From the NCBI GenBank assembly GCA_016182485.1, contig JACPGH010000006.1, positions 90,461 through 154,460 on the forward strand: 64,000 bases of DNA, written 5' to 3'. Source of the stretch: Candidatus Kaiserbacteria bacterium (GTDB lineage: Bacteria > Patescibacteriota > Minisyncoccia > Phycocordibacterales > Phycocordibacteraceae). Below, in pieces: positions 109 to 61,153 of this stretch. The position numbers and the translations under genes are program-made. Below the pieces are notes generated by a model that saw nothing but the letters and a program-made list of their open reading frames with translations, was not told the origin of the DNA and did no database searches. Numbering within the stretch: the stretch's first letter is position 1; each line of letters opens with the position of its first letter.

Positions 109-2268
109 TTACGACAGCGCCCGGCGCTTCCTAGCCTTGCGAACCGGCTTCGTGCCCTCGAGCCGGTAGATCTCGTCGCGGATGAGCGCGGCCGTCTCGA
201 AGTCGAGCTGCTCCACCGCCTCCGCCATTTCCCGCCGCTTGCGCTTGATGAACGCGGTGGGATCGTCTTTATACGCGACCGTGTCGAGCGCGAGCAGCTC
301 GTCTACGGTCTTCTGGTGCTCCGTACGCATAGAAGCGGCGATGTCGCGGATCTCTTTTTGAATGGTCCTCGGCGTGATGCCGTGCTCTTTGTTATATGCC
401 AACTGTTTTTCCCGACGCCGCTGCGTCTCCCCTATCGCCTTCTCGAGCGAGCCGGTCATCACATCGGCATAAAGGATGACGCGCCCGAGCACGTTTCTCG
501 CCGCTCTCCCAATGGTTTGAATGAGCGATGTTTCGCTGCGCAAGAACCCTTCCTTATCCGCATCGAGGATTCCCACGAGCTCCACCTCCGGCAAGTCGAG
601 CCCTTCGCGCAAAAGATTTACGCCGACTAAAATATCGAATTCGCCTTTCCTGAAATTGGTGAGTATGTCTATGCGCTCGATTGTTTTTACGTCCGAATGC
701 AGATATTCGGCCTTCATACCGCGCTGGCGCAAAAATTCCGCTAGATCCTCGGCCATGCGTTTCGTGAGGGTCGTCGCGAGCGCCCTTCCATTCCTACGGA
801 TCACTTTCTCCGCTTCATTGATAAAATCGGCAATTTGCCCCCCGTATTTTCCATTTTCCTGCTGTACCTTAGTATCGCCTATAGGCCACATTAAGGTGCT
901 CCTTGTTTGCACGGAAACCGGATGAACGAGAAGCTCCGGATCCACCAATCCAGTCGGCCGAATAACTTGCTCCACGATTTGTTCGGAGTGTTTTCGCTCA
1001 TACGGTCCCGGGGTCGCGCTCGTGTAAATCGTCTGTCCCACGCGCTCCTCGAATTCCTCGAACGTGAGCGGCCGGTTGTCGCGCGCCGAAGGGAGACGGA
1101 AGCCGTACTGGACGAGGTTATCTTTGCGCGAGCGATCGCCTTCGAACATGCCGCCGATCTGCGGCACGGTTACGTGCGACTCGTCTATCACGGTTAGAAA
1201 GCCCGCGTCCGAGATCGAACCTTGAGAATTCGGATTTAAGGTTCGACCTTGGGTACCGAAAAGTTCAGAATTTTTACGGAAATAGCTCAATAAAGTATAC
1301 GGCGGCTGCCCGGCCTTTCGCCCGTCGAAATGCCGCGAATAATTCTCGATGCCGCTCGTATACCCGAGCTCGCGGATAAGCGCGATGTCGTGGAGCGTCC
1401 GGCGCTTCAAGCGTTCAGCTTCGAGCGGTTTCTCCTCGCGCTTGAATTTCGCGAGCTGTTCCTCGAGCTCGAGCTTTATGTCTTCGATAGCCCGGTTGCG
1501 CTCATCCTCGCTCGTGACGAAATGCTTCGCGGGATATACGAATATCACGCTCGGCTCCTCGAGCTTCGAGCGCGAGACCGGATCGAGTTTGTCAATGCTA
1601 GAGACGGAATCTCCCGCGAAAGCGATACGGTACAGCACCCGCTCGTTGACCGGCATGAATTCGAGCGAGTTCCCGATCGCGCGCAGCTGACCGGGATTCA
1701 GGTCCGCCGTCGTCCGTTCGAAATAGATGCCGATAAGCTTCCGTATTAACTGGCCTCTGGTTTCTGGCCGGCCGGTTTCTAGTTTTACGTGCACTTTTTC
1801 GTATTCTTCCGGCGAACCAAGGCCATAAATCGCTGAGACAGAGGCAACGATAATGACATCGCGGCGCGTTAGAAGCGCTTGCGTCGCGGCGTGGCGCAGG
1901 CGATCTATCTCCTCGTTGATCATCGCCTCTTTCTCGATATAAGTATCCGAATGCGCGATGTAGGCCTCCGGCTGATAGTAATCGTAGTATGAAACGAAAT
2001 AATGCACGGCGTTTTCTGGAAAGAATTCCCGATACTCCTGCGCGAGCTGGGCGGCGAGCGTCTTGTTATGCGCGAGCACCAAGGTCGGCGCATCGCGGCG
2101 CGCGATTACGTTCGCGACGGTATACGTCTTCCCGGTCCCGGTGGCGCCGAAAAGCGTTTGATGCCTGTAGTCCTTGTCGAGGCCTTCGGCGAGCTTCTCG
2201 ATCGCCTGCGGCTGATCGCCCGCCGGCGGATAAGGGGTGTGCAATTTGAAATTAGCCATTGTTGCCAT
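109..2268 (-). CDS. uvrB: Excinuclease ABC subunit B (UvrB)
   Basis: 744-aa ORF. The likely start is the internal MATMANF (ATG at 2266-2268). Walker A GATGTGKT is present, with helicase motifs and a C-terminal UVR domain (ALIRDEIYRLEG). Confidence 0.9.
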   Translation of the reverse strand: MATMANFKLHTPYPPAGDQPQAIEKLAEGLDKDYRHQTLFGATGTGKTYTVANVIARRDAPTLVLAHNKTLAAQLAQEYREFFPENAVHYFVSYYDYYQPEAYIAHSDTYIEKEAMINEEIDRLRHAATQALLTRRDVIIVASVSAIYGLGSPEEYEKVHVKLETGRPETRGQLIRKLIGIYFERTTADLNPGQLRAIGNSLEFMPVNERVLYRIAFAGDSVSSIDKLDPVSRSKLEEPSVIFVYPAKHFVTSEDERNRAIEDIKLELEEQLAKFKREEKPLEAERLKRRTLHDIALIRELGYTSGIENYSRHFDGRKAGQPPYTLLSYFRKNSELFGTQGRTLNPNSQGSISDAGFLTVIDESHVTVPQIGGMFEGDRSRKDNLVQYGFRLPSARDNRPLTFEEFEERVGQTIYTSATPGPYERKHSEQIVEQVIRPTGLVDPELLVHPVSVQTRSTLMWPIGDTKVQQENGKYGGQIADFINEAEKVIRRNGRALATTLTKRMAEDLAEFLRQRGMKAEYLHSDVKTIERIDILTNFRKGEFDILVGVNLLREGLDLPEVELVGILDADKEGFLRSETSLIQTIGRAARNVLGRVILYADVMTGSLEKAIGETQRRREKQLAYNKEHGITPRTIQKEIRDIAASMRTEHQKTVDELLALDTVAYKDDPTAFIKRKRREMAEAVEQLDFETAALIRDEIYRLEGTKPVRKARKRRALS

Positions 2269-3532
2269 AGTAGGTGCGCACGAAATCCTCGCGGAATTCT
2301 TCGAACCGTCCGTCGAAGATCGCCTCCCGAGCTTGTGATACAAGATCCAGGATGAAGCCGAGGTTATGCATCGAGCAGATTATGGCGCCGAGCATTTCAC
2401 CAGAGCGAACGAGGTGCGCGACGTAGGCCTTCGAAAAACTCGATATGTAGGACATCGTAAGTCCATCATCTGATGATGGACTTACGATGTCCAGACTTTC
2501 AGGATCGAGGGATGAAAAATCAGAGCGGTACTTCTCGCTCTTCAAGTGAATGATGCCGCGCCTCGTGTAAATGCTGCCGTGTCGGCCGATGCGGGTCGGC
2601 GCGACACAGTCGAACAGGTCGACTCCGGCGGCGATGCTCGCCAGAATATCGCCCGGCTCGCCGATACCGAGGCCGTGCACCGGCATTGTCTCCGGCAACT
2701 CCTTGAGCATCGCGAGCGCCGATTCAAGCGAATCCTCCCCGTACTTCTTGCTGAAGGAGCCGCCGAGCCCGAAGCCGTCGAATCCCATCTCCGCGATGGT
2801 TCGCGCGCTGACTCGCCGCAAATCGTCGAACTGCCCGCCCTGAGCAATGCCGAAAACAGCTTGCTGGTTTCTGGCGACTAGATTCTGGCGGTGCGCTTTT
2901 AGCGAACGCCCGGCCCATCGATGCGTGCGTTCCATCGCCTCTCTTTGGTATTCATATGTCTCCGTCGGAGCGGTGCATTCATCAAACGCGAAGAATATGT
3001 CTGCTCCGAGCGCGTGCTGGATCTCCACCGACCGCTCGGGCGTGAAGCGGTGGAGCGAGCCGTCGAGATGCGAAGTGAACGAGACGCCCTCGTCATCGAT
3101 TATGGCGAGCTGGCCGTGCTGGCTCGCCACGTGCTCGTCGTAGACGGCGACCTGATCCGTTTTCTCGGATATTTCTCCTTCTACGGTCGAGAACTTCGAC
3201 ACCTTCCGATTGAACGCCGCGCCGAGCGAGAATACTTGAAATCCGCCCGAGTCAGTCACAGTGGGCCCATCCCAATGCATGAATTTCGCGAGACCGCCGG
3301 CCGCCTGAACGATAGCTTCTCCCGGCGAGAGGTACAGGTGATACGTGTTCGCGAGCACCGCTTGCGCCCCGAGTGCCGCCAGCTGCCCGGGCAATATTCC
3401 CTTCACATCCGCCTTGGTCCCGACCGGGACGAAAGCGGGAGTCAGGATCGGCCCGTGCGAAGTCGTGAGAATGCCGGCACGCGCGCCGCTCCGCGGCGCG
3501 CGTGCCTCTATCGTGAACGAAAGCGCGCTCAT
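2252..3532 (-). CDS. tgt: Queuine tRNA-ribosyltransferase (tRNA-guanine transglycosylase) with a C-terminal extension
   Basis: The N-terminus resembles Tgt (FTIEARAPRSGARAGILTTSHGPILTPAFVPVGTKADVKG) over a TIM-barrel fold. The 3' end overlaps the uvrB start by 17 nt. Confidence 0.85.
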   Translation of the reverse strand: MSALSFTIEARAPRSGARAGILTTSHGPILTPAFVPVGTKADVKGILPGQLAALGAQAVLANTYHLYLSPGEAIVQAAGGLAKFMHWDGPTVTDSGGFQVFSLGAAFNRKVSKFSTVEGEISEKTDQVAVYDEHVASQHGQLAIIDDEGVSFTSHLDGSLHRFTPERSVEIQHALGADIFFAFDECTAPTETYEYQREAMERTHRWAGRSLKAHRQNLVARNQQAVFGIAQGGQFDDLRRVSARTIAEMGFDGFGLGGSFSKKYGEDSLESALAMLKELPETMPVHGLGIGEPGDILASIAAGVDLFDCVAPTRIGRHGSIYTRRGIIHLKSEKYRSDFSSLDPESLDIVSPSSDDGLTMSYISSFSKAYVAHLVRSGEMLGAIICSMHNLGFILDLVSQAREAIFDGRFEEFREDFVRTYYGNNG

Positions 3533-10204: not shown

Positions 10205-13045
10205 TCAATGGGAGAGATACCGCTCGCGGATCATCGTCTCTACGGTAGCACGGTCGCGCCCGTACGTTTGCGCAGAAAGGTGCACAAGCGCGTCGATTTG
10301 CTCCGGATTCCCTTTCTCCGGCGCCGGCGTCTTCAGGTCAAACGGTTTTTGCGGCACGCCGGCGGCGAGGATTTTCACATATGCGTTGAAATTTTCTATA
10401 TTGACGAAATCCAGAGCTTCGAATACCGGCGCGAACTGCTTCGCGAAAAATTCGGCGTCCTCTTCGCCTACGCGGAAAACAGCCATATTGCCGACGTTGC
10501 CGAACACGGCATTGCGCGTCTTTTCGTCGATCTGATTCAGGAATTGGTGCGCCATGGCGAGCGCGAGCTTGTATTTGCGCGCCTCGGAGAGAATGCCGGG
10601 GATCGAATCGGTAGTTACGTTATGGAATTCGTCCATATAGAGATAGAACGGCGCATGCGCGGCGCGCGGAGAATCCGCGCGAGAGAGAGCCGCCATAAAC
10701 AGTTTCCCTACAATTATGAGACCTATGAGATTTGCATTCTTCTCGCCCAAGCGGCCTTTCGAGAGGTTAATGAGAAGTATTTTCCTGGTGTCCATCACCT
10801 CGCGGAACTTGAATGAAGACTGCTGCTGTCCGACGATCGGCCGTATGAAGTCGTTCGCGGTGAAGTCATCGAACTTGTTCGTGATATACGGCACGATATT
10901 GGCGAGCGAAGCCTCCCCTTCCGCCTTCGTCGCTATCTCCTGCCAGAACTGATTGATGATCGGATTCATGCTCCTGCTCAGTTTCAGCCGGCGGAATTCG
11001 CTATTGGAGAGCACTCGCGCGATATCGAGTATCGTAGAGCCGCTCGTCGGGTCCTCGAGTACGAGCTGAGTCGCATTTCGGAAATATTGCTCGAACGCCG
11101 GGCCCATGCTCTCCGGCACATCTCCATAGAGCCGGCGGAAGATCATCAGGAGCTCGTTCACAATGAACGTCTTTTGTTCGGGCCGAGAGAGGTCGTACTC
11201 GAGAAAATTGAGACTGAAGGGGCGCGATAGGTCCGCCGGGTCGAAGTAGATCACATCCTGATAGCGCGCGGGCGGGACGGAGGCGAGGATATCGAGGATA
11301 TCGGAGCCGTGCGGATCGATGAAGCAGCAGCCTTCGCCGTTCTTGATGTCCTGAATGATCATCGACTTCAAGAGGCCGGTCTTGCCGGTGCCGGTCTGAC
11401 CTATGACATATAGGTGGCGCAGGCGGTCCTCGGCCGAAAGATGGATGGGAGTCTCCACGCCTCGGTAGGTATTTTTCCCCAATAGAACCGCCCCGGCAGG
11501 CGCCTGCCCCGTTAGAAATCCGATTTCTAACGGGGCAGGCGCGTGCGTGAAGCGCGCCTGCTTCAAGTGCGGCGCCGATTCGAGACCGGCCGGCGGGAAA
11601 TGATAGAGGCTCGTCAATTCGCGCAGCGATAACGGAAGGGCGGAGGGACTGGGGAGACGAAAAGAAAAATCCTCGCAAACCCCTTGCACATTGCGCGGGC
11701 CGGCCCGTTCGAACGTAAAGCGGTTCCCTTGCGTATTAGCGAATTGATTAAAGGCGGCTTCAAGCTCGCCGAGCGCTTGTTCGGCCTTGCGCTCGTTGCC
11801 AGAAGACACGACTAGCCGAATGGTCGTGCCGACGATCGGCGTCGCGATCTTCTTTTCGACCAGCTCGATGAAAGTCTTGTTCGCGTCTATTTGACGAGTT
11901 TCCGTCTGCTTGGCTTTTTCGACATCTTTCGGTTTGCTGGAAAAGAGCGCGCGCCCCATGTCGCGCGCAAAGGCCCCGAGCGCGGTCTCCGGCATCGAAA
12001 ACGCGCTCGAATGCTTCTCGCCCTTGCGCAAGGCGTTAAGGATCTTTCGATAATGAGCTACGTGGCGCTCCCCGCGCGGCTCGACGATGATCTGAAGCGC
12101 GGCCCCCTCGCCGGTGTGCTCGATCTTGGCGAAGGCATTCGTTATAACGTTGATCGGGTCGTAATCGAACTCTGTGTACATAGTCAGCGGCAAGGCCGGA
12201 TGCGCAGCGAGTTTCGCCGTAGCAGCGAGCGAAGTCCCGCCCTGAGCAAAGATATTGTAGTCGCGCGGCTCCAGAGTCAGATGGGCGTCCGGGAATATGC
12301 CGAGCAGTTGCTTTTCGAAGAGGTCGCGCTTCCCTCGCGGCACGGCCGCATAGAATTGGAGGTGCGGGCTATCGGCCGGGATCGCGAGCTCAAGCGCGAA
12401 ATAGTTCGGTTCTGCTCCGGAAGCGTTTCCGATCGACAGCAGTCCCGCATATAACTGCTCCATGCTTGAGACAAGTTCTTTTAGCGGCTTGTTTCTGGTT
12501 TCTGGTTTCTGGTTGCTCGTTTCCGGCAGCGCGATCGCATAGAGCTCCATTTTAAGAGCTCTGAAGCGGGGCGCTTTCTCATCCGTGTTCGGCACCTGCA
12601 AACCTTCGCCAACGTAGCGTACGAGATAGCGGTGGAAGTCATCCGTCACGTGCGCGTCGTGGAGGCCTTCCATGACCGCCAGCGCGTTCTTGATCCCTTT
12701 CTCTTCGAGCGTTTTTTGTAGCGCCTGAATGGCCCCGTCGCTGCCGCCGAGCTCGAACTCGGCGCGCAGAGTTTCGGCCCTGCTCTTCTGCTCCGAGGCC
12801 GGCAGGCGATACTCTGGCGCGAGAATTTTTTCAGGCGCTGACGTATGCTCATGGATCGTTTCGGATATGATCCGGACGCGTTCCGCTTCTGGCGCTTGGT
12901 CTGCCGCTCCTTGTCGGAGTTCCGCCTCTTTGCGCGCGACTTGCTCGCGCAGATACGCGAGCTCCGCTTCCGGAGTGGTGAGTGGCGGCGTCGCTTCCAT
13001 TCTTTTTAGTATACCCCGCCGAATACTCGGGGAATTCTTTTTCAA
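10205..13045 (-). CDS. TraD/VirD4-like coupling-protein-type ATPase (FtsK-HerA superfamily, T4SS DNA-transfer-like)
   Basis: 946 aa. Walker A is GQTGTGKTG, followed by CFIDPHGSD (the DPxG motif typical of TraD/TrwB/HerA-like ATPases). The N-terminal domain is about 500 aa. No T4SS partner genes are nearby. Confidence 0.65.
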   Translation of the reverse strand: MKKNSPSIRRGILKRMEATPPLTTPEAELAYLREQVARKEAELRQGAADQAPEAERVRIISETIHEHTSAPEKILAPEYRLPASEQKSRAETLRAEFELGGSDGAIQALQKTLEEKGIKNALAVMEGLHDAHVTDDFHRYLVRYVGEGLQVPNTDEKAPRFRALKMELYAIALPETSNQKPETRNKPLKELVSSMEQLYAGLLSIGNASGAEPNYFALELAIPADSPHLQFYAAVPRGKRDLFEKQLLGIFPDAHLTLEPRDYNIFAQGGTSLAATAKLAAHPALPLTMYTEFDYDPINVITNAFAKIEHTGEGAALQIIVEPRGERHVAHYRKILNALRKGEKHSSAFSMPETALGAFARDMGRALFSSKPKDVEKAKQTETRQIDANKTFIELVEKKIATPIVGTTIRLVVSSGNERKAEQALGELEAAFNQFANTQGNRFTFERAGPRNVQGVCEDFSFRLPSPSALPLSLRELTSLYHFPPAGLESAPHLKQARFTHAPAPLEIGFLTGQAPAGAVLLGKNTYRGVETPIHLSAEDRLRHLYVIGQTGTGKTGLLKSMIIQDIKNGEGCCFIDPHGSDILDILASVPPARYQDVIYFDPADLSRPFSLNFLEYDLSRPEQKTFIVNELLMIFRRLYGDVPESMGPAFEQYFRNATQLVLEDPTSGSTILDIARVLSNSEFRRLKLSRSMNPIINQFWQEIATKAEGEASLANIVPYITNKFDDFTANDFIRPIVGQQQSSFKFREVMDTRKILLINLSKGRLGEKNANLIGLIIVGKLFMAALSRADSPRAAHAPFYLYMDEFHNVTTDSIPGILSEARKYKLALAMAHQFLNQIDEKTRNAVFGNVGNMAVFRVGEEDAEFFAKQFAPVFEALDFVNIENFNAYVKILAAGVPQKPFDLKTPAPEKGNPEQIDALVHLSAQTYGRDRATVETMIRERYLSH
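11500..11542. repeat. 43-nt perfect palindrome inside the TraD-like CDS
   Basis: GCGCCTGCCCCGTTAGAAATC-C-GATTTCTAACGGGGCAGGCGC, with 21-bp perfect arms. In frame it encodes ...HAPAPLEIGFLTGQAPAG... Confidence 0.7.
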
Positions 13046-13079
13046 CTAACGATTTTCTGGCAGGGTATACTGTACCGAA

Positions 13080-13689: not shown

Positions 13690-13758
13690 CCTGTGAAGGT
13701 CTGACCTTCACAGGTGCACATATATACAGTTAGCTTGTGAAGGTCTGACCTTCACAGG
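13690..13758. repeat. Pair of palindromic repeat elements (core TGTGAAGGTC-T-GACCTTCACA), locus A
   Basis: Copies lie at 13690-13714 (12-bp arms CCTGTGAAGGTC/GACCTTCACAGG) and 13734-13758. They sit between the convergent dedA-like and dsbA-like 3' ends. Confidence 0.8.
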
Positions 13759-18627: not shown

Positions 18628-19679
18628 TCTTTATATAACTCGAGCACGGCCAGCTCGAGCGGGAGCGCAGGAATAGGCGCATATCGGATGCGCTCTCCTG
18701 CCTCGAGAAATGCCCGTAGCGTCTTATGCGTGATGTGGGAAGTGCTACTTACCACATCATTGCCGGAGATTTTTTCGAGCGCTGCGAATTCGTCCGCCCC
18801 GAGCTCGCTCGCGAGCTCGGGGCGGAGCTCGGGCGCATAGCGGATGAGAAGCACCGAGCGCAATCCTTCGAGCACAAGCTCCAGATAAAGGCGCATATCT
18901 ATGCCGGCTCTGGCCGCTTTTTCTATCGTCTCAAGCGCGCGGCCTTGGCCCCCAGCGGGCGGCGCCTTTGCGAGCGCGGAAAGAAGCGCATGCACCTGCT
19001 CTCGGCGCGGCGCGGCTGTGACTGCTTCTACCGATTCCCGCGAAATAATTTTTCCTGGAGCCGCGACGAGAACCTTCTGCAACACCGAAAGCGCGTCGCG
19101 ATACGAGCCCTCGGCGAGAATGGCGACGAGCTCGGCCGCGGCCGCCTCGAGGGCAACCCCCTCCTTCTTGGCGACCGCGATTGCAGTCTTCGCGAGCACT
19201 GCTCTAGTAGGCTTCTTGAACTCGAACACCTGACAGCGCGATTGCACGGTTTCCGGCACTTTTTCGATTTCGGTTGTTGCAAGTATGAAAACAGCGTGCG
19301 CCGGGGGTTCCTCCAGCGTCTTCAAGAAAGCATTCCAGGCGCCCTTCGAGAGCATGTGCACTTCGTCGAGAATGTACACCTTATAGGACGACTCGAACGG
19401 CAACGTGTACACGCCCTCGGTGAGCGCGCGGATATCTTCTACGCTGTTGTGGCTTGCCGCGTCTATTTCATGCAGATCACGCTCGCTCGTGCCAATCGCG
19501 GCGGCGAAGATGCGCGCTACCGAAGTTTTCCCCAAGCCGCGGCTTCCGGCAAAAAGATAGGCGTGGCCGATCTTTTTTGCTTTGACCGCTTCAGATAACG
19601 GCTTCGTCACCTGTTCTTGCCCTATGACTTCTTCAAATGTCGCCGGCCGATACGTGCGATAGAGAGCCTGATGCGCCAT
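18624..19679 (-). CDS. dnaX: DNA polymerase III subunit gamma/tau (short form)
   Basis: N-terminus YRPATFEEVIGQE, Walker A GSRGLGKTS, and the AAA+ clamp-loader sensor motifs. It is only 351 aa. Confidence 0.8.
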   Translation of the reverse strand: MAHQALYRTYRPATFEEVIGQEQVTKPLSEAVKAKKIGHAYLFAGSRGLGKTSVARIFAAAIGTSERDLHEIDAASHNSVEDIRALTEGVYTLPFESSYKVYILDEVHMLSKGAWNAFLKTLEEPPAHAVFILATTEIEKVPETVQSRCQVFEFKKPTRAVLAKTAIAVAKKEGVALEAAAAELVAILAEGSYRDALSVLQKVLVAAPGKIISRESVEAVTAAPRREQVHALLSALAKAPPAGGQGRALETIEKAARAGIDMRLYLELVLEGLRSVLLIRYAPELRPELASELGADEFAALEKISGNDVVSSTSHITHKTLRAFLEAGERIRYAPIPALPLELAVLELYKE

Positions 19680-38068: not shown

Positions 38069-38884
38069 ATGACAAAGGATGAGCGGACGCTTCTCGAAGA
38101 GAAATACTGGGGAAAACGTTCTGCGGCATATGAGGAGGATCGCGAGCGGCTCGCCCTCGGCGAGCCGCTCGCGTACGTCATCGGCTGGCAGCCGTTCCTC
38201 GGATTGAAGATATACCTTGATTCCAAGCCGCTCATCCCCCGCCCGGAGACGGAATGGTGGACGGAGCTGGCGCTACACGAGGCACAGCGGCGTTCGTTCG
38301 AGGACGTGTCGCAGCGCGACGGCGCGAGACACAGCAAATTTTCAGCAGAAAATTATGCGCGTCCGAGAGCGGACGCCGCTGTGCCTCTCACATTCCTCGA
38401 TCTTTGCTCCGGCTCGGGAGCGATAGGCTGTGCCGCACTCGCACAGTTGCCGCAGGCTCGCGTCTTTTTCGGAGAGATCGACGAGGCACATCGCGACACG
38501 ATCCTGAAAAATATCCGCAAAAACGGCTTGGACCAATCGAGGGCCGATGTCCGTATCGGCGACTTGTTGGAACCGTTCGCCAGCCTGAAGTTCGATATCA
38601 TTGCCGCTAATCCGCCGTATATCCCGAGCGGACGCGCCCTATCGCCGAGCGTGTCCGCGCACGAACCTAAAGGGGCGCTCTACGCGGGAGGGGACGGCCT
38701 CGCTGTCATTCGCCGTATCGCCCGGGAACTTCCCCGATACCTCGCTCCCGGCGGCATGACGTGGATCGAGTGCGATTCGGAATATGCCGAAACTGCCGGC
38801 TCCTTGTTTGCGAGTCAGGGGTTGCAGTTTGAAATACGCACAGACCAGTACGGCCGCCCTCGCATTATCCGCGTGACTCTCTAA
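38069..38884 (+). CDS. prmC: Release-factor glutamine N5-methyltransferase (HemK/PrmC)
   Basis: NPPY motif (IAANPPYIP) and a SAM-binding motif (DLCSGSGAIG). Confidence 0.8.
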   Translation: MTKDERTLLEEKYWGKRSAAYEEDRERLALGEPLAYVIGWQPFLGLKIYLDSKPLIPRPETEWWTELALHEAQRRSFEDVSQRDGARHSKFSAENYARPRADAAVPLTFLDLCSGSGAIGCAALAQLPQARVFFGEIDEAHRDTILKNIRKNGLDQSRADVRIGDLLEPFASLKFDIIAANPPYIPSGRALSPSVSAHEPKGALYAGGDGLAVIRRIARELPRYLAPGGMTWIECDSEYAETAGSLFASQGLQFEIRTDQYGRPRIIRVTL

Positions 38885-46040: not shown

Positions 46041-46110
46041 AGTGTGAAGGTCTGACCTTCACAGAATGAGTTGGGGATAACATAGCTTGTGAAGGTCAGA
46101 CCTTCACAGC
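46041..46110. repeat. Pair of palindromic repeat elements, locus B (cores 46043-46063 and 46088-46108)
   Basis: TGTGAAGGTCTGACCTTCACA, and TGTGAAGGTCAGACCTTCACA with a central T-to-A change. They lie in the divergent promoter region between the RecB-like nuclease and a receiver gene. Confidence 0.8.
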
Positions 46111-49975: not shown

Positions 49976-50050
49976 GCATGGATGTGAAGGTCTGACCTTC
50001 ACATCCATGCGCGACTATCGTTGTACCTGTGAAGGTCTGACCTTCACAGG
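49976..50050. repeat. Pair of palindromic repeat elements, locus C (35-nt perfect palindrome 49976-50010; 25-nt copy 50026-50050 abutting the rpoC stop)
   Basis: The first copy is GCATGGATGTGAAGGTC-T-GACCTTCACATCCATGC and the second is CCTGTGAAGGTCTGACCTTCACAGG. The rpoC stop codon is at 50051-50053. Confidence 0.85.
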
Positions 50051-53851: not shown

Positions 53852-57037
<3,186 letters not shown>

Positions 57038-59043: not shown

Positions 59044-61080
59044 TTGCTAGAGTACAACAAAATGCCGACAGGCAAGACGTACGAGGGCCCTATCACGATA
59101 ACCCGCAGCGGGATAGGATTTTTCCCGTTGTCGGGCGGGACTAGCCGGGATAAGAGTACGGATCTTATTATCCCGGCGGAGTGGACTGGGCATGCTCTCT
59201 CTGGCGATATCGTGAAGATCGTCCCAGCAGGTACCTACCGCGATCCAGCCGGACGAATGCCTCCGCGCGCGGCCGGAAAGGTCGCAGAGATCGTTTCGCG
59301 CGCCCGCGAAACGTTTGTGGGCACGCTCATTGAGCAGGAAGGAGCGGTATTGCTTTCCCCGGATTACAAAAAAATGCACCTGCCGATCGAGGTGCGTCCC
59401 TCGCAAAAGCTCGGGACGATCGGCGATGCGCCGATCGGATACAAAGTGCTCGTGCGGATGAGGGGCTGGGACGCAAATGCGCCCTACCCTTGGGGCGTGG
59501 TCGAAGAAGTAATCGGCAAGGCAGGCGTACACGAGACCGAAATGCGGGCCCTCGCGCTCGGGCAAGGGTTTTCGTCTGACTTCCCTCCCGGCGTTCTCGC
59601 GGATGTCAAATATCTTGAAGAGCACGGGCGCGCGATACTGGAAAAAGAAGCGCAAAATTCGAAACGCCGTGATTTCAGGGATATTCCCACTTGCACTATC
59701 GACCCGTTCGATGCGAAGGATTTCGACGACGCGCTCTCCGTGCGCCCGCTCGCGGGCGGGAATATCGAGGTGGGCATCCATATCGCGGATGTCTCCTTTT
59801 TCGTTACTCCCGAAAGCGCGCTCGACAAGGAAGCTCGCGAGCGGGCGACCTCAGTCTACCTGGTCGACCGTACCATTCCGATGCTTCCGGAAGTGCTGTC
59901 GAATGATCTATGTTCGCTAAAGCCGAACGAAGACCGCCTCGCCGTCTCTGCGGTGTTCACCCTCGACGCCGAGGCTCACATCGTAGAAAGCTGGTTCGGC
60001 GAGACGGTTATACATTCGAACAAGCGCTTCACGTACGAGGAAGCGCAGGAAGTTCTCGATCGCGGGGACGGTACGATGCATAGAGAGCTGTCGCTCCTGC
60101 TCGCTCTCTCGAAGAAAATCCGCGCGAAGCGCCAGGCCAAAGGCGCGATCGAATTCGATACCGCCGAGGTGAAAGTGGAGCTCGATGCCGACGGCCGGCC
60201 GATAGCGATCCGTCTCAAGGAACGGAAAGCGACGAACCTCTTGATCGAGGATTTCATGCTGTTGGCTAACGAAGCTGTAGCGAAGCATCTGGCCGCGCTG
60301 ACCGAAAACGGCGGCCCGCACTTCTATTCGCTCTATCGCATCCACGACGCGCCGGACGCCGATCGCATCGAAAATCTTTCCCACCTTCTGCGAATCATGG
60401 GCTACCAGCTGAAAACAGCCGGGGGGAAAGTTTCGGGAGCCGAGCTGAACAGACTGCTCGAGTCGGTGAAGGGCAAGCCCGAAGAATACCTCGTCAAGAC
60501 GGCAACGCTGCGCTCAATGAGCAAAGCAGTATACGCGACGCAGAATATCGGTCACTTCGGGCTCGCCTTCGATTTCTACACGCACTTCACCTCTCCGATC
60601 CGCCGCTATCCCGATCTGGTCATACACCGCCTGCTCAAAGCGCACGCGGGCCTTCGCCTCGCCGGAGCGGGCTTCGGCCACGCGCAGGCGGGCGGCGCGC
60701 CGATCTCGGAAGAAGAAATGCGGGACTTTGACGCGCTCGCCCTGCACGCTTCCGAACGCGAAGTCGCGGCGGCGGAGGCGGAGCGCGATTCTATAAAGAT
60801 GAAGCAGGTAGAGTTTCTCGCCGGGCGCATCGGCGAGGAATTTGACGCAGTTATTTCCGGCGTCACCGACCGGGGTTTGTATGTGGAAGAGAAAGAAACG
60901 CACGCCGACGGCATGATACGCATCCAAAACGTCGGAGACGATTATTTCGAATACGACGAGAAGCACTACCGACTCGTCGGCCGCCGCACGAAGAAGGCAT
61001 TTCAGCTCGGAGACCCCATCCGCGTTAAATTGATCGCCGCGCGCGTCCCTGAAAAAGAACTGGATTTCGTCCCAGTGTGA
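59044..61080 (+). CDS. rnr: Ribonuclease R (RNB family 3'-5' exoribonuclease)
   Basis: Cold-shock/OB N-terminus, an RNB catalytic domain (DPFDAKDFDDALSV...HIADVSFFV) and a C-terminal S1 domain. Confidence 0.9.
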   Translation: MLEYNKMPTGKTYEGPITITRSGIGFFPLSGGTSRDKSTDLIIPAEWTGHALSGDIVKIVPAGTYRDPAGRMPPRAAGKVAEIVSRARETFVGTLIEQEGAVLLSPDYKKMHLPIEVRPSQKLGTIGDAPIGYKVLVRMRGWDANAPYPWGVVEEVIGKAGVHETEMRALALGQGFSSDFPPGVLADVKYLEEHGRAILEKEAQNSKRRDFRDIPTCTIDPFDAKDFDDALSVRPLAGGNIEVGIHIADVSFFVTPESALDKEARERATSVYLVDRTIPMLPEVLSNDLCSLKPNEDRLAVSAVFTLDAEAHIVESWFGETVIHSNKRFTYEEAQEVLDRGDGTMHRELSLLLALSKKIRAKRQAKGAIEFDTAEVKVELDADGRPIAIRLKERKATNLLIEDFMLLANEAVAKHLAALTENGGPHFYSLYRIHDAPDADRIENLSHLLRIMGYQLKTAGGKVSGAELNRLLESVKGKPEEYLVKTATLRSMSKAVYATQNIGHFGLAFDFYTHFTSPIRRYPDLVIHRLLKAHAGLRLAGAGFGHAQAGGAPISEEEMRDFDALALHASEREVAAAEAERDSIKMKQVEFLAGRIGEEFDAVISGVTDRGLYVEEKETHADGMIRIQNVGDDYFEYDEKHYRLVGRRTKKAFQLGDPIRVKLIAARVPEKELDFVPV

Positions 61081-61153
61081 AGGTCTGACCTTCACACGCA
61101 TTTTATCCTTATAAATGCTCAAAAACAGCCTGTGAAGGTCTGACCTTCACAGG
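61075..61153. repeat. Pair of palindromic repeat elements, locus D (61075-61097 overlapping the rnr stop; 61129-61153)
   Basis: GTGTGAAGGTCTGACCTTCACAC includes the rnr TGA (61078-61080). CCTGTGAAGGTCTGACCTTCACAGG follows 31 nt later. They sit between the convergent rnr and smc-like 3' ends. Confidence 0.85.

Follow-up and report, generated by a model that had tools for sequence, protein, structure and literature searches.

Why should a bacterial gene carry, within its reading frame, a perfect palindrome of 43 nucleotides (nt)? The question is raised by a VirD4/TraG-like ATPase gene of a Candidatus Kaiserbacteria bacterium, located in the 64,000-nt stretch analysed here (contig JACPGH010000006.1, positions 90,461 to 154,460; hereafter the window, to which all positions without a locus name refer). 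As far as sequence comparison can tell, the palindrome is very probably a copy of an ultra-short palindromic element that resembles a MITE (miniature inverted-repeat transposable element). This good confidence applies to its family membership and mobile origin; we are much less sure of the type of transposase and of the history of the junctions. The features in question are:

10205-13000, minus strand: VirD4/TraG-like P-loop ATPase, 931 aa (DUF8128 + DUF87/TraG-D_C)
11378-11401, minus strand: Walker A box (GQTGTGKT), which follows the insert at a distance of 31 codons
11492-11545, minus strand: codons 486-503, encoding HAPAPLEIGFLTGQAPAG, an 18-aa loop
11500-11542: 43-nt perfect palindrome (21/1/21), the reported feature
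11507-11535: 29-nt core CCCCGTTAGAAATC-C-GATTTCTAACGGGG, 0 mismatches against the Patescibacteria element consensus; two 14-nt terminal inverted repeats (TIRs) back to back and a free central base
11500-11506: 7-nt flank GCGCCTG, which complements 11536-11542 and lengthens the palindrome past the element
11536-11542: 7-nt flank CAGGCGC, host codons (H)APA on the minus strand
11495-11508: 14-nt palindrome GGCAGGCGCCTGCC
11535-11561: host inverted repeat (9/9/9) GCAGGCGCG-N9-CGCGCCTGC, which encodes the conserved KQARFTHAPA and overlaps one palindrome arm

A previous sequence-only reading of this locus had pointed to the palindrome, to two inverted repeats that flank it and to the small likelihood of such a structure arising by chance, and we could corroborate all three points. 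The 43 nt, GCGCCTGCCCCGTTAGAAATC-C-GATTTCTAACGGGGCAGGCGC, consist of fully complementary 21-nt arms around one central base, lie in frame within the minus-strand open reading frame (ORF) 10205-13045, encode HAPAPLEIGFLTGQAPAG N-terminal to the Walker A box and are accompanied by both flanking repeats (11495-11508 and 11535-11561). Chance is ruled out as an explanation: none of 30 Markov-1 simulations of the window yielded a perfect hairpin palindrome with arms of at least 12 nt. The predicted fold of the region as single-stranded DNA reaches -30.1 kcal/mol (z = -10.5 against shuffles), that of its 83-nt mRNA context -53.3 kcal/mol (z = -6.6). The 43-nt palindrome is thus confirmed as real and non-random.

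A scan of 185,579 species, each represented by a single genome, with the query TTAGAAATCNGATTTCTAA gave matches at 60 loci, about 35 of which belong to Patescibacteria (Kaiserbacteria, Paceibacterota, Parcubacteria, Saccharibacteria and Staskawiczbacteria). A genome-wide search for the arm, as had been suggested for this locus, hence retrieves the same palindrome at these roughly 35 loci, together with target-site duplications. The extended consensus of the Patescibacteria loci is CCCCGTTAGAAATC-N-GATTTCTAACGGGG, ends with CCCCG and is matched exactly by window positions 11507-11535; the arm-pair strings are CCCCGTTAGA ... TCTAACGGGG. Several copies are present in some genomes, with a maximum of six in Kaiserbacteria RIFCSPLOWO2_02_FULL_54_13, and the total in Patescibacteria genomes amounts to about 40 copies. 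No copy was found among the IMG/VR viral contigs. Rfam returned no family at gathering thresholds in the window except two tRNAs and, at four element-rich loci, one sub-threshold small RNA match (E = 0.06, chance-level) away from the elements. Literature searches for MITEs and palindromic elements in the candidate phyla radiation (CPR)/Patescibacteria, and for the sequence strings themselves, yielded nothing relevant, and the element is apparently previously undescribed. Metagenome-assembled genomes (MAGs) of Clostridia (L010, L021, L022, L027, L066) have a 41-nt palindrome in common, AAAATATCAAGTTAGAAATC-N-GATTTCTAACTTGATATTTT, with the 19-nt centre of the CPR element, other arms and no CCCCG ends, which is probably an unrelated conserved site.

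The anatomy of the copies is that of a transposed unit. A perfect 4-nt direct repeat abuts the 29-mer in 22 of 32 canonical copies and varies from copy to copy (CTTG, CAAG, CTCG, CCCG, CAAA, TGAA, TAAA, CTGG); since the chance rate is only 1/256 per copy, we regard these repeats as target-site duplications. An alignment of 37 copies yields G^CNNG^C as the consensus target; TATA, TGAA and CTCG serve as targets as well. The 14 arm pairs are 98.6% paired in this alignment, with six pairs changed on both sides, and the middle two duplication columns are non-complementary in 33-34 of the 37 copies. Longer members with the same termini and 4-nt duplications measure 58 nt (L006), 60-63 nt (L014, L078), and 114 and 117 nt (L012, L061), and nested and variant copies occur at L028, L048 and L052. 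None of the 58-117 nt relatives has an ORF of transposase size.

Related genomes also provide empty sites. The divergent DedA and VirD4-like genes are separated by a 23-nt spacer, which is empty in L001, L074 and L076, where it reads CAGTATACTAGA, and in L006 is occupied by an intact 58-nt member with a TATA duplication. The window carries a degenerate member at the same TATA:

13010-13069, minus strand: second family member, degenerate and about 52 nt long (13014-13065), flanked by the duplicated TATA at 13010-13013 and 13066-13069

The insertion interrupts the TATACT motif of this 23-nt divergent-promoter spacer. A loop of GatB is empty in L077 (NDERTLAVLAANY), and in L079 it has received a clean insertion of 33 nt that duplicated CTCG and left the host loop whole; at neighbouring CTCG sites, L059 holds a canonical 29-mer with 18 nt of the host loop missing, and L078 a 62-nt member with 24 nt missing. 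This one loop has thus received at least three independent insertions. It is the combination of terminal repeats, duplications, size series and empty sites that identifies the anatomy of a MITE family.

How can such an element persist inside genes? Each insertion comprises 29 + 4 = 33 nt, or 11 codons, and therefore never shifts the frame. One of the three frames of the unit contains TAG and TAA, the second reads PVRNxISNG, and the third reads PLEI(G/R)FLTG and stays open as long as the central base does not produce TGA. Being palindromic, the unit has the same open frames on either strand. Copies in these two frames are found within long ORFs for GatB, ComEC (two genomes), thioredoxin reductase (TrxB), a ComF-like phosphoribosyltransferase, a glycerate-kinase-like protein and RpoB. 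The rpoB gene of the Saccharibacteria locus L052 alone holds three in-frame, element-derived insertions (718-746, 1758-1789 and 2707-2735), all absent from the rpoB genes of the window and L075. Many copies are located on ATGA(A/G) start codons, where the duplication regenerates the start codon, for instance at nth (endonuclease III) in five lineages (L013, L014, L038, L039, L047), at rbfA in four (L067, L070-L072) and at several other genes. In these nth- and rbfA-start copies the arms are near-invariant, third codon positions included, with flanks about 25% different and duplications partly decayed. One copy in the stop-containing first frame supplies a new stop near the DedA C-terminus; no first-frame copy that splits a long ORF was noticed, a point on which no systematic test was made. 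At L024 (6862-6990, compared with window 60980-61100) the element lies in the 3' end of a gene, and directly upstream stands a second, synonymously diverged 3' end with its own stop, the protein being restored ahead of the insertion.

We propose that the palindrome in the VirD4-like gene is a fixed, predicted-translated copy of a miniature, non-autonomous palindromic element that is dispersed through Patescibacteria genomes. The minimal 29-bp unit, two 14-bp TIRs and a free base, would integrate at G^CNNG^C and duplicate 4 bp, possibly mobilised in trans by a DDE-type transposase with 4-bp staggered cuts. Insertions in tolerant loops or right after start codons would survive selection, because 33 bp keep the frame and leave two of three frames open. 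The copy in the VirD4-like gene would be read in the PLEIGFLTG frame.

The position of this copy in its host protein fits a tolerant loop. The ATPase ORF actually begins with the ATG at 13000 and runs to a stop at 10205; the 931-aa product is identical to the NCBI protein of a Candidatus Kaiserbacteria MAG, and its domain matches (P-loop, DUF87, TraG-D_C, TraD-type) are weak. The gene is single-copy, with a chromosomal neighbourhood that is conserved in Kaiserbacteria. Loop length was measurable in 105 of the 120 best orthologues (74-77% identity); 95 of these have an 11-residue loop of the APAPLSLPQTG type, eight have other lengths, and the range is 11-23 aa. The insertion site is therefore a linker of variable length that precedes the P-loop domain. 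The segment APAPLEIGFLTGQAPAG is carried only by the window protein and by P0003, and 118 of the 120 orthologues lack it, with APAPLSLPQTG-type loops instead. The sequence-only reading had proposed exactly this alignment in expectation of about 14 inserted codons: the insertion was borne out, the size was not, as the window loop of 18 aa exceeds the usual 11 aa by a net 7 codons (21 nt). The AlphaFold model of the ATPase is too poor to use (mean pLDDT, the predicted local distance difference test, 48). Residues 463-543 are of low confidence, and the modelling of 465-481 and 485-504 (insert included) as coil is compatible with a flexible linker but no evidence for one.

The junctions of the window copy are more complex than those of canonical copies:

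11501-11506: 6 additional nt that separate the core from the displaced direct repeat
11497-11500 and 11536-11539: CAGG direct repeat (CCTG on the coding strand), resembling a target-site duplication, 6 nt off the core
11495-11503 and 11534-11542: 9-nt direct repeat GGCAGGCGC, with APA encoded twice on the minus strand

Taken as reverse complement, these additional 6 nt equal those on the opposite side of the core. Core, extra 6 nt and duplicated 4 nt add 39 nt, the net gain is 21 nt, and the host loop is 18 nt short; simple insertions of 33 nt or 39 nt are ruled out by this net gain. The GatB copies show a similarly variable host deficit. Our proposal for the window copy starts from a canonical insertion into the APA codons, at G^CCTG^C, after which a hairpin-templated template switch would have copied the opposite flank (6 nt) and produced the 21-nt arms, and a deletion of about 18 nt of host sequence would have shortened the loop.

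The same complex allele is present in P0003 (L001-L005, five independent assemblies). The arms of L001 differ from those of the window at five positions, all of them synonymous, so that both encode the same 18-residue peptide; only the L001 copy has lost pairing, with 17 of 21 arm positions still matching. Because the palindrome eroded synonymously while the protein segment remained unchanged, it appears to be the peptide and not the palindrome that is under selection at the L001 site. P0003 shares 85-86% identity with insertion-free orthologues and 76% with the window protein. A sister relationship of P0001 and P0003 finds no backing in rare residues, none of which they share, whereas the neighbouring gene for tRNA-guanine transglycosylase (TGT) groups the window with L001. 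A recent short-patch transfer between window and L001 is unsupported, since synonymous identity around the site is not elevated; the 26-nt identical run is within expectation, and a 29-nt run occurs elsewhere in the gene. Recurrent hot-spot insertion, precise loss or old short-patch recombination may account for the shared allele. A metagenome scan for the allele returned only the known P0003 contig and the rbfA-start copies.

Several observations weigh against a MITE-like origin. The flanks that abut the core of the window copy are inverted (CCTG...CAGG on the coding strand) instead of direct, which is why its arms measure 21 nt and not 14-15 nt; complementary flanks occur in only two of the 37 aligned copies, the window copy and L029, and L029 also has arms of exactly 21 nt. 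A net size of +21 in place of +33 nt obliges us to assume at least two further events. The allele in the VirD4-like gene is common to window and L001, whereas the intergenic insertion is common to window and L006, and this distribution is conflicting. The near-invariance of the core at the nth start hints at a sequence-specific constraint, unlike that of a purely selfish fossil. Copy number is low: the 64 kb contain a single intact copy and a single degenerate one. Finally, a search of 622 kb of loci revealed neither an autonomous element nor a transposase with matching ends, and the arm pairs 150-5000 nt apart in these sequences are only pairs of separate small copies, none of which encloses an insertion sequence.

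Could the palindromes be maintained for a function of their own? The element might now be a functional cis site, whatever its origin, bound by a dimeric host protein as an operator or a nucleoid/segregation site. At orthologous sites the core shows much stronger conservation than its flanks, start codons hold about 14 of roughly 45 copies, copies per genome are few, and the window contains another, operator-looking family of paired palindromes. We nevertheless consider this explanation unlikely, as target-site duplications and empty sites indicate insertion and not site evolution, positions inside genes are scattered, and the L001 copy in the VirD4-like gene decays as DNA while its peptide is kept; the defined number and placement, free of insertion signatures, that mark dif, parS or operator-type sites are not what we observe. 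A cis site of this kind does not exclude a mobile origin. Similarly, the enrichment of copies directly after start codons and the predicted mRNA hairpin with its 20-bp stem (-53.3 kcal/mol, z = -6.6, as given above) could speak for a role at the RNA level, in which a very stable hairpin mediates translational pausing, RNase III cleavage or initiation control. This is quite improbable: pairing in the family and in a second coding hairpin, that of the TGT gene, is strictly Watson-Crick, with G.U in 1 of 105 cells of the TGT alignment (A3), which is a signature of DNA symmetry and not of selection for RNA structure, and L001 has lost the outer stem without a change in the protein. The protein-binding and RNA-pausing alternatives raised by the sequence-only reading are not needed, and may apply as secondary roles.

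The palindrome might also have been made in place, by inverted duplication of host coding sequence through template switching or snap-back and without any mobile element. One arm overlaps the conserved host residues APAPL, and template switching is established as a mutational route by which quasipalindromes are corrected (PMC7202029). A template switch would be the best explanation of the outer 6-7 nt, but it fails for the 29-nt core, which is identical to a repeat at dozens of unrelated loci in other genomes. Repeated creation of the same 29-mer is not credible, and we reject an in-place origin of the core; for the palindrome as a whole such an origin is very improbable. The four perfect palindromes with arms of exactly 21 nt in 622 kb, and none longer, could moreover raise the suspicion of an assembly or sequencing artefact, such as a hairpin chimera or an effect of k = 21. 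The same allele of the VirD4-like gene is, however, present in five independent assemblies (ENA, JGI, MEGAHIT), many studies and assemblers have yielded MAGs with members of the family, the reading frame is kept, and we see by reasoning no de Bruijn graph route to an internal 43-nt palindrome with unique flanks. On these grounds the k-mer explanation of the 21-nt arms was rejected, and an artefact of any kind is exceedingly improbable.

Is the palindrome in the VirD4-like gene an isolated case? The window contains 28 perfect hairpin palindromes with arms of at least 10 nt and loops of at most 6 nt, compared with 0.63 expected, and 20 with arms of at least 12 nt, compared with 0 expected. Several are inside genes. 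Palindromes of interest in the window, with four intergenic pairs among them, are:

2450-2492, minus strand: second 43-nt palindrome (21/1/21), in frame in the TGT gene (2252-3532)
3476-3506: 14/3/14 palindrome in TGT codons 8-18 (EARAPRSGARA)
18793-18826: palindrome within an ORF (16/2/16)
38141-38173: palindrome within an ORF (15/3/15)
55800-55826: 12/3/12 palindrome encoding SALGPGGLTR of RpoB (rpoB 53852-57037, minus strand)
13693-13755: pair of TGTGAAGGTC-N-GACCTTCACA palindromes
46044-46107: pair of the same palindromes
49984-50047: pair of the same palindromes
61077-61150: pair of the same palindromes

Compared with L006, L074 and L076, the 43-nt palindrome of the TGT gene is inserted sequence. 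Four other lineages (L001 11993-12035, L080, L081, L082) have homologues of it that keep 95% of pairs; 8 of 21 pairs have changed on both sides and none on one side only, with one G.U. This strict Watson-Crick compensation in a drifting sequence points to a symmetry that would be maintained at the DNA level rather than to RNA structure or to a site of sequence-specific binding. The palindrome in TGT codons 8-18 is likewise perfect, with a different sequence, in L001 (14/3), L074 (13/3) and L006 (10/4). The TGT segment TPAFVPVGTKAGV forms an 18/4/18 palindrome in L074 (9941-9980), with 17/18 in L075 and 11-13/18 in other lineages; TPAFVPVGTKAGV and SALGPGGLTR are universally conserved motifs that are encoded as perfect palindromes in some lineages. 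The longest perfect arms in 622 kb measure 21 nt in four cases (window 11500-11542 and 2450-2492, L001 11993-12035, L029 2111-2153), an apparent ceiling.

The compensated coding hairpins suggest a DNA-level, palindrome-maintaining process in these organisms and support the idea that the 7-nt extension of the palindrome in the VirD4-like gene is a product of the same symmetrising process. A wider synthesis, which we put forward tentatively and regard as rather doubtful in its entirety, would join the two lines. A frame-neutral, 29-bp transposable palindrome would be kept constant by a force other than recent transposition, for example binding of a host or transposase-derived protein, and co-opted at start codons and in the essential genes rpoB, gatB, nth and rbfA; hairpins would in parallel be actively symmetrised at the DNA level, with coding palindromes such as those of TGT and of the RpoB motif SALGPGGLTR perfected and lengthened to a strict maximum of 21-bp arms, and the palindrome in the VirD4-like gene would be the result of both processes.

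The paired palindromes are a separate family. The 21-nt palindrome TGTGAAGGTC-N-GACCTTCACA has eight copies, arranged as four intergenic pairs 44-55 nt apart, each of which brackets an A+T-rich, -10-like stretch, and the pairs look like candidate paired operators of one regulator. Two of these sites are found at places where related genomes carry the CCCCGTTAGAAATC element.

CPR genomes are small and gene-dense, and are thought to be poor in mobile elements. If our interpretation is correct, the palindrome represents the smallest transposon-like element with a target duplication, consisting merely of two 14-bp ends; to our knowledge, neither a smaller element of this type nor an earlier such family in the CPR has been described. 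Its stop-free, 33-bp design would explain the persistence of a selfish element where nearly all DNA codes, and its insertions would have added 11-residue peptide modules to core proteins such as RNA polymerase beta, GatB, thioredoxin reductase, ComEC and the VirD4-like ATPase. In the annotation and alignment of CPR sequences, PLEI(G/R)FLTG, PVRNxISNG and the 29-mer could serve as easy markers of insertions that otherwise resemble lineage-specific loops.

How does the element compare with known systems? Rickettsia palindromic elements (RPEs), to which the sequence-only reading had likened the palindrome as an in-frame insertion, have about 100-150 bp (30-50 aa), fall into about ten families and occur in Rickettsia only (PMC10969869). 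Both systems place dispersed palindromes in frame in unrelated, often essential genes of a reduced-genome bacterium, where RPEs are translated into additional peptide segments (PMC10969869) and copies of our element would be too, but our element differs in its 29 bp (11 codons with the duplication), its 4-bp target duplication, its unrelated sequence and its Patescibacteria host. The comparison thus favours an in-frame insertion in coding genes, and speaks against membership in an RPE family. What remains of the likeness is a dispersed palindrome in frame in unrelated genes, of which the central 29 nt are the element; size, sequence and host are not those of RPEs, and the outer 7 nt per arm would be junction or host sequence.

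The head of repetitive extragenic palindromic sequences (REPs) is GTAG or CGTC; they lie outside genes and do not duplicate their target (PMC3733652). REPs and the bacterial interspersed mosaic elements (BIMEs) built from them, which are mobilised by REP-associated tyrosine transposases (RAYTs), share with the element palindromes of 20-40 nt and many copies; the CCCCG ends, the many intragenic copies and the 4-nt duplication set the element apart from this class. The piggyBac transposons make 4-bp target duplications and have TIRs that start with CCC (PMC10813416). Our element has the 4-bp duplication and the CCC-starting ends in common with piggyBac/IS1380, but its target is G^CNNG^C and not TTAA, and no transposase gene was found in its loci; the resemblance is a lead only. 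IS1380 elements have CC-starting repeats and 4-5 bp duplications, and the piggyBac TIR CCCTAGAAAGATA loosely resembles CCCCGTTAGAAATC.

Perfect inverted repeats in functional coding sequence, with both arms translated, are known from mitochondrial genes of Nematomorpha (PMC6649704), and template switching can turn imperfect palindromes into perfect ones (PMC7202029). Both fit the 7-nt flank extension and the compensated TGT hairpin at 2450-2492. The Nematomorpha repeats differ in that they are mitochondrial and consist of host sequence of up to 284 bp, whereas here a mobile core is combined with arms of at most 21 nt.

In the way it works the element resembles prokaryotic MITEs such as Correia/NEMIS, ERIC, QMITE and Nezha. 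Described MITEs typically have 50-400 bp and are thus far longer than the 29-bp element, whose minimal form consists of two TIRs only; few copies per genome and the lack of a parent insertion sequence in our searches are further differences, and the window copy does not show the target-site duplication in its simple form (CAGG displaced by 6 nt, flanks inverted). As a family, however, the element shares with these MITEs its shortness, the absence of a transposase gene, common TIRs and target-site duplications, as well as a size series with common ends, dispersed copies and, in its empty sites, presence or absence between relatives.

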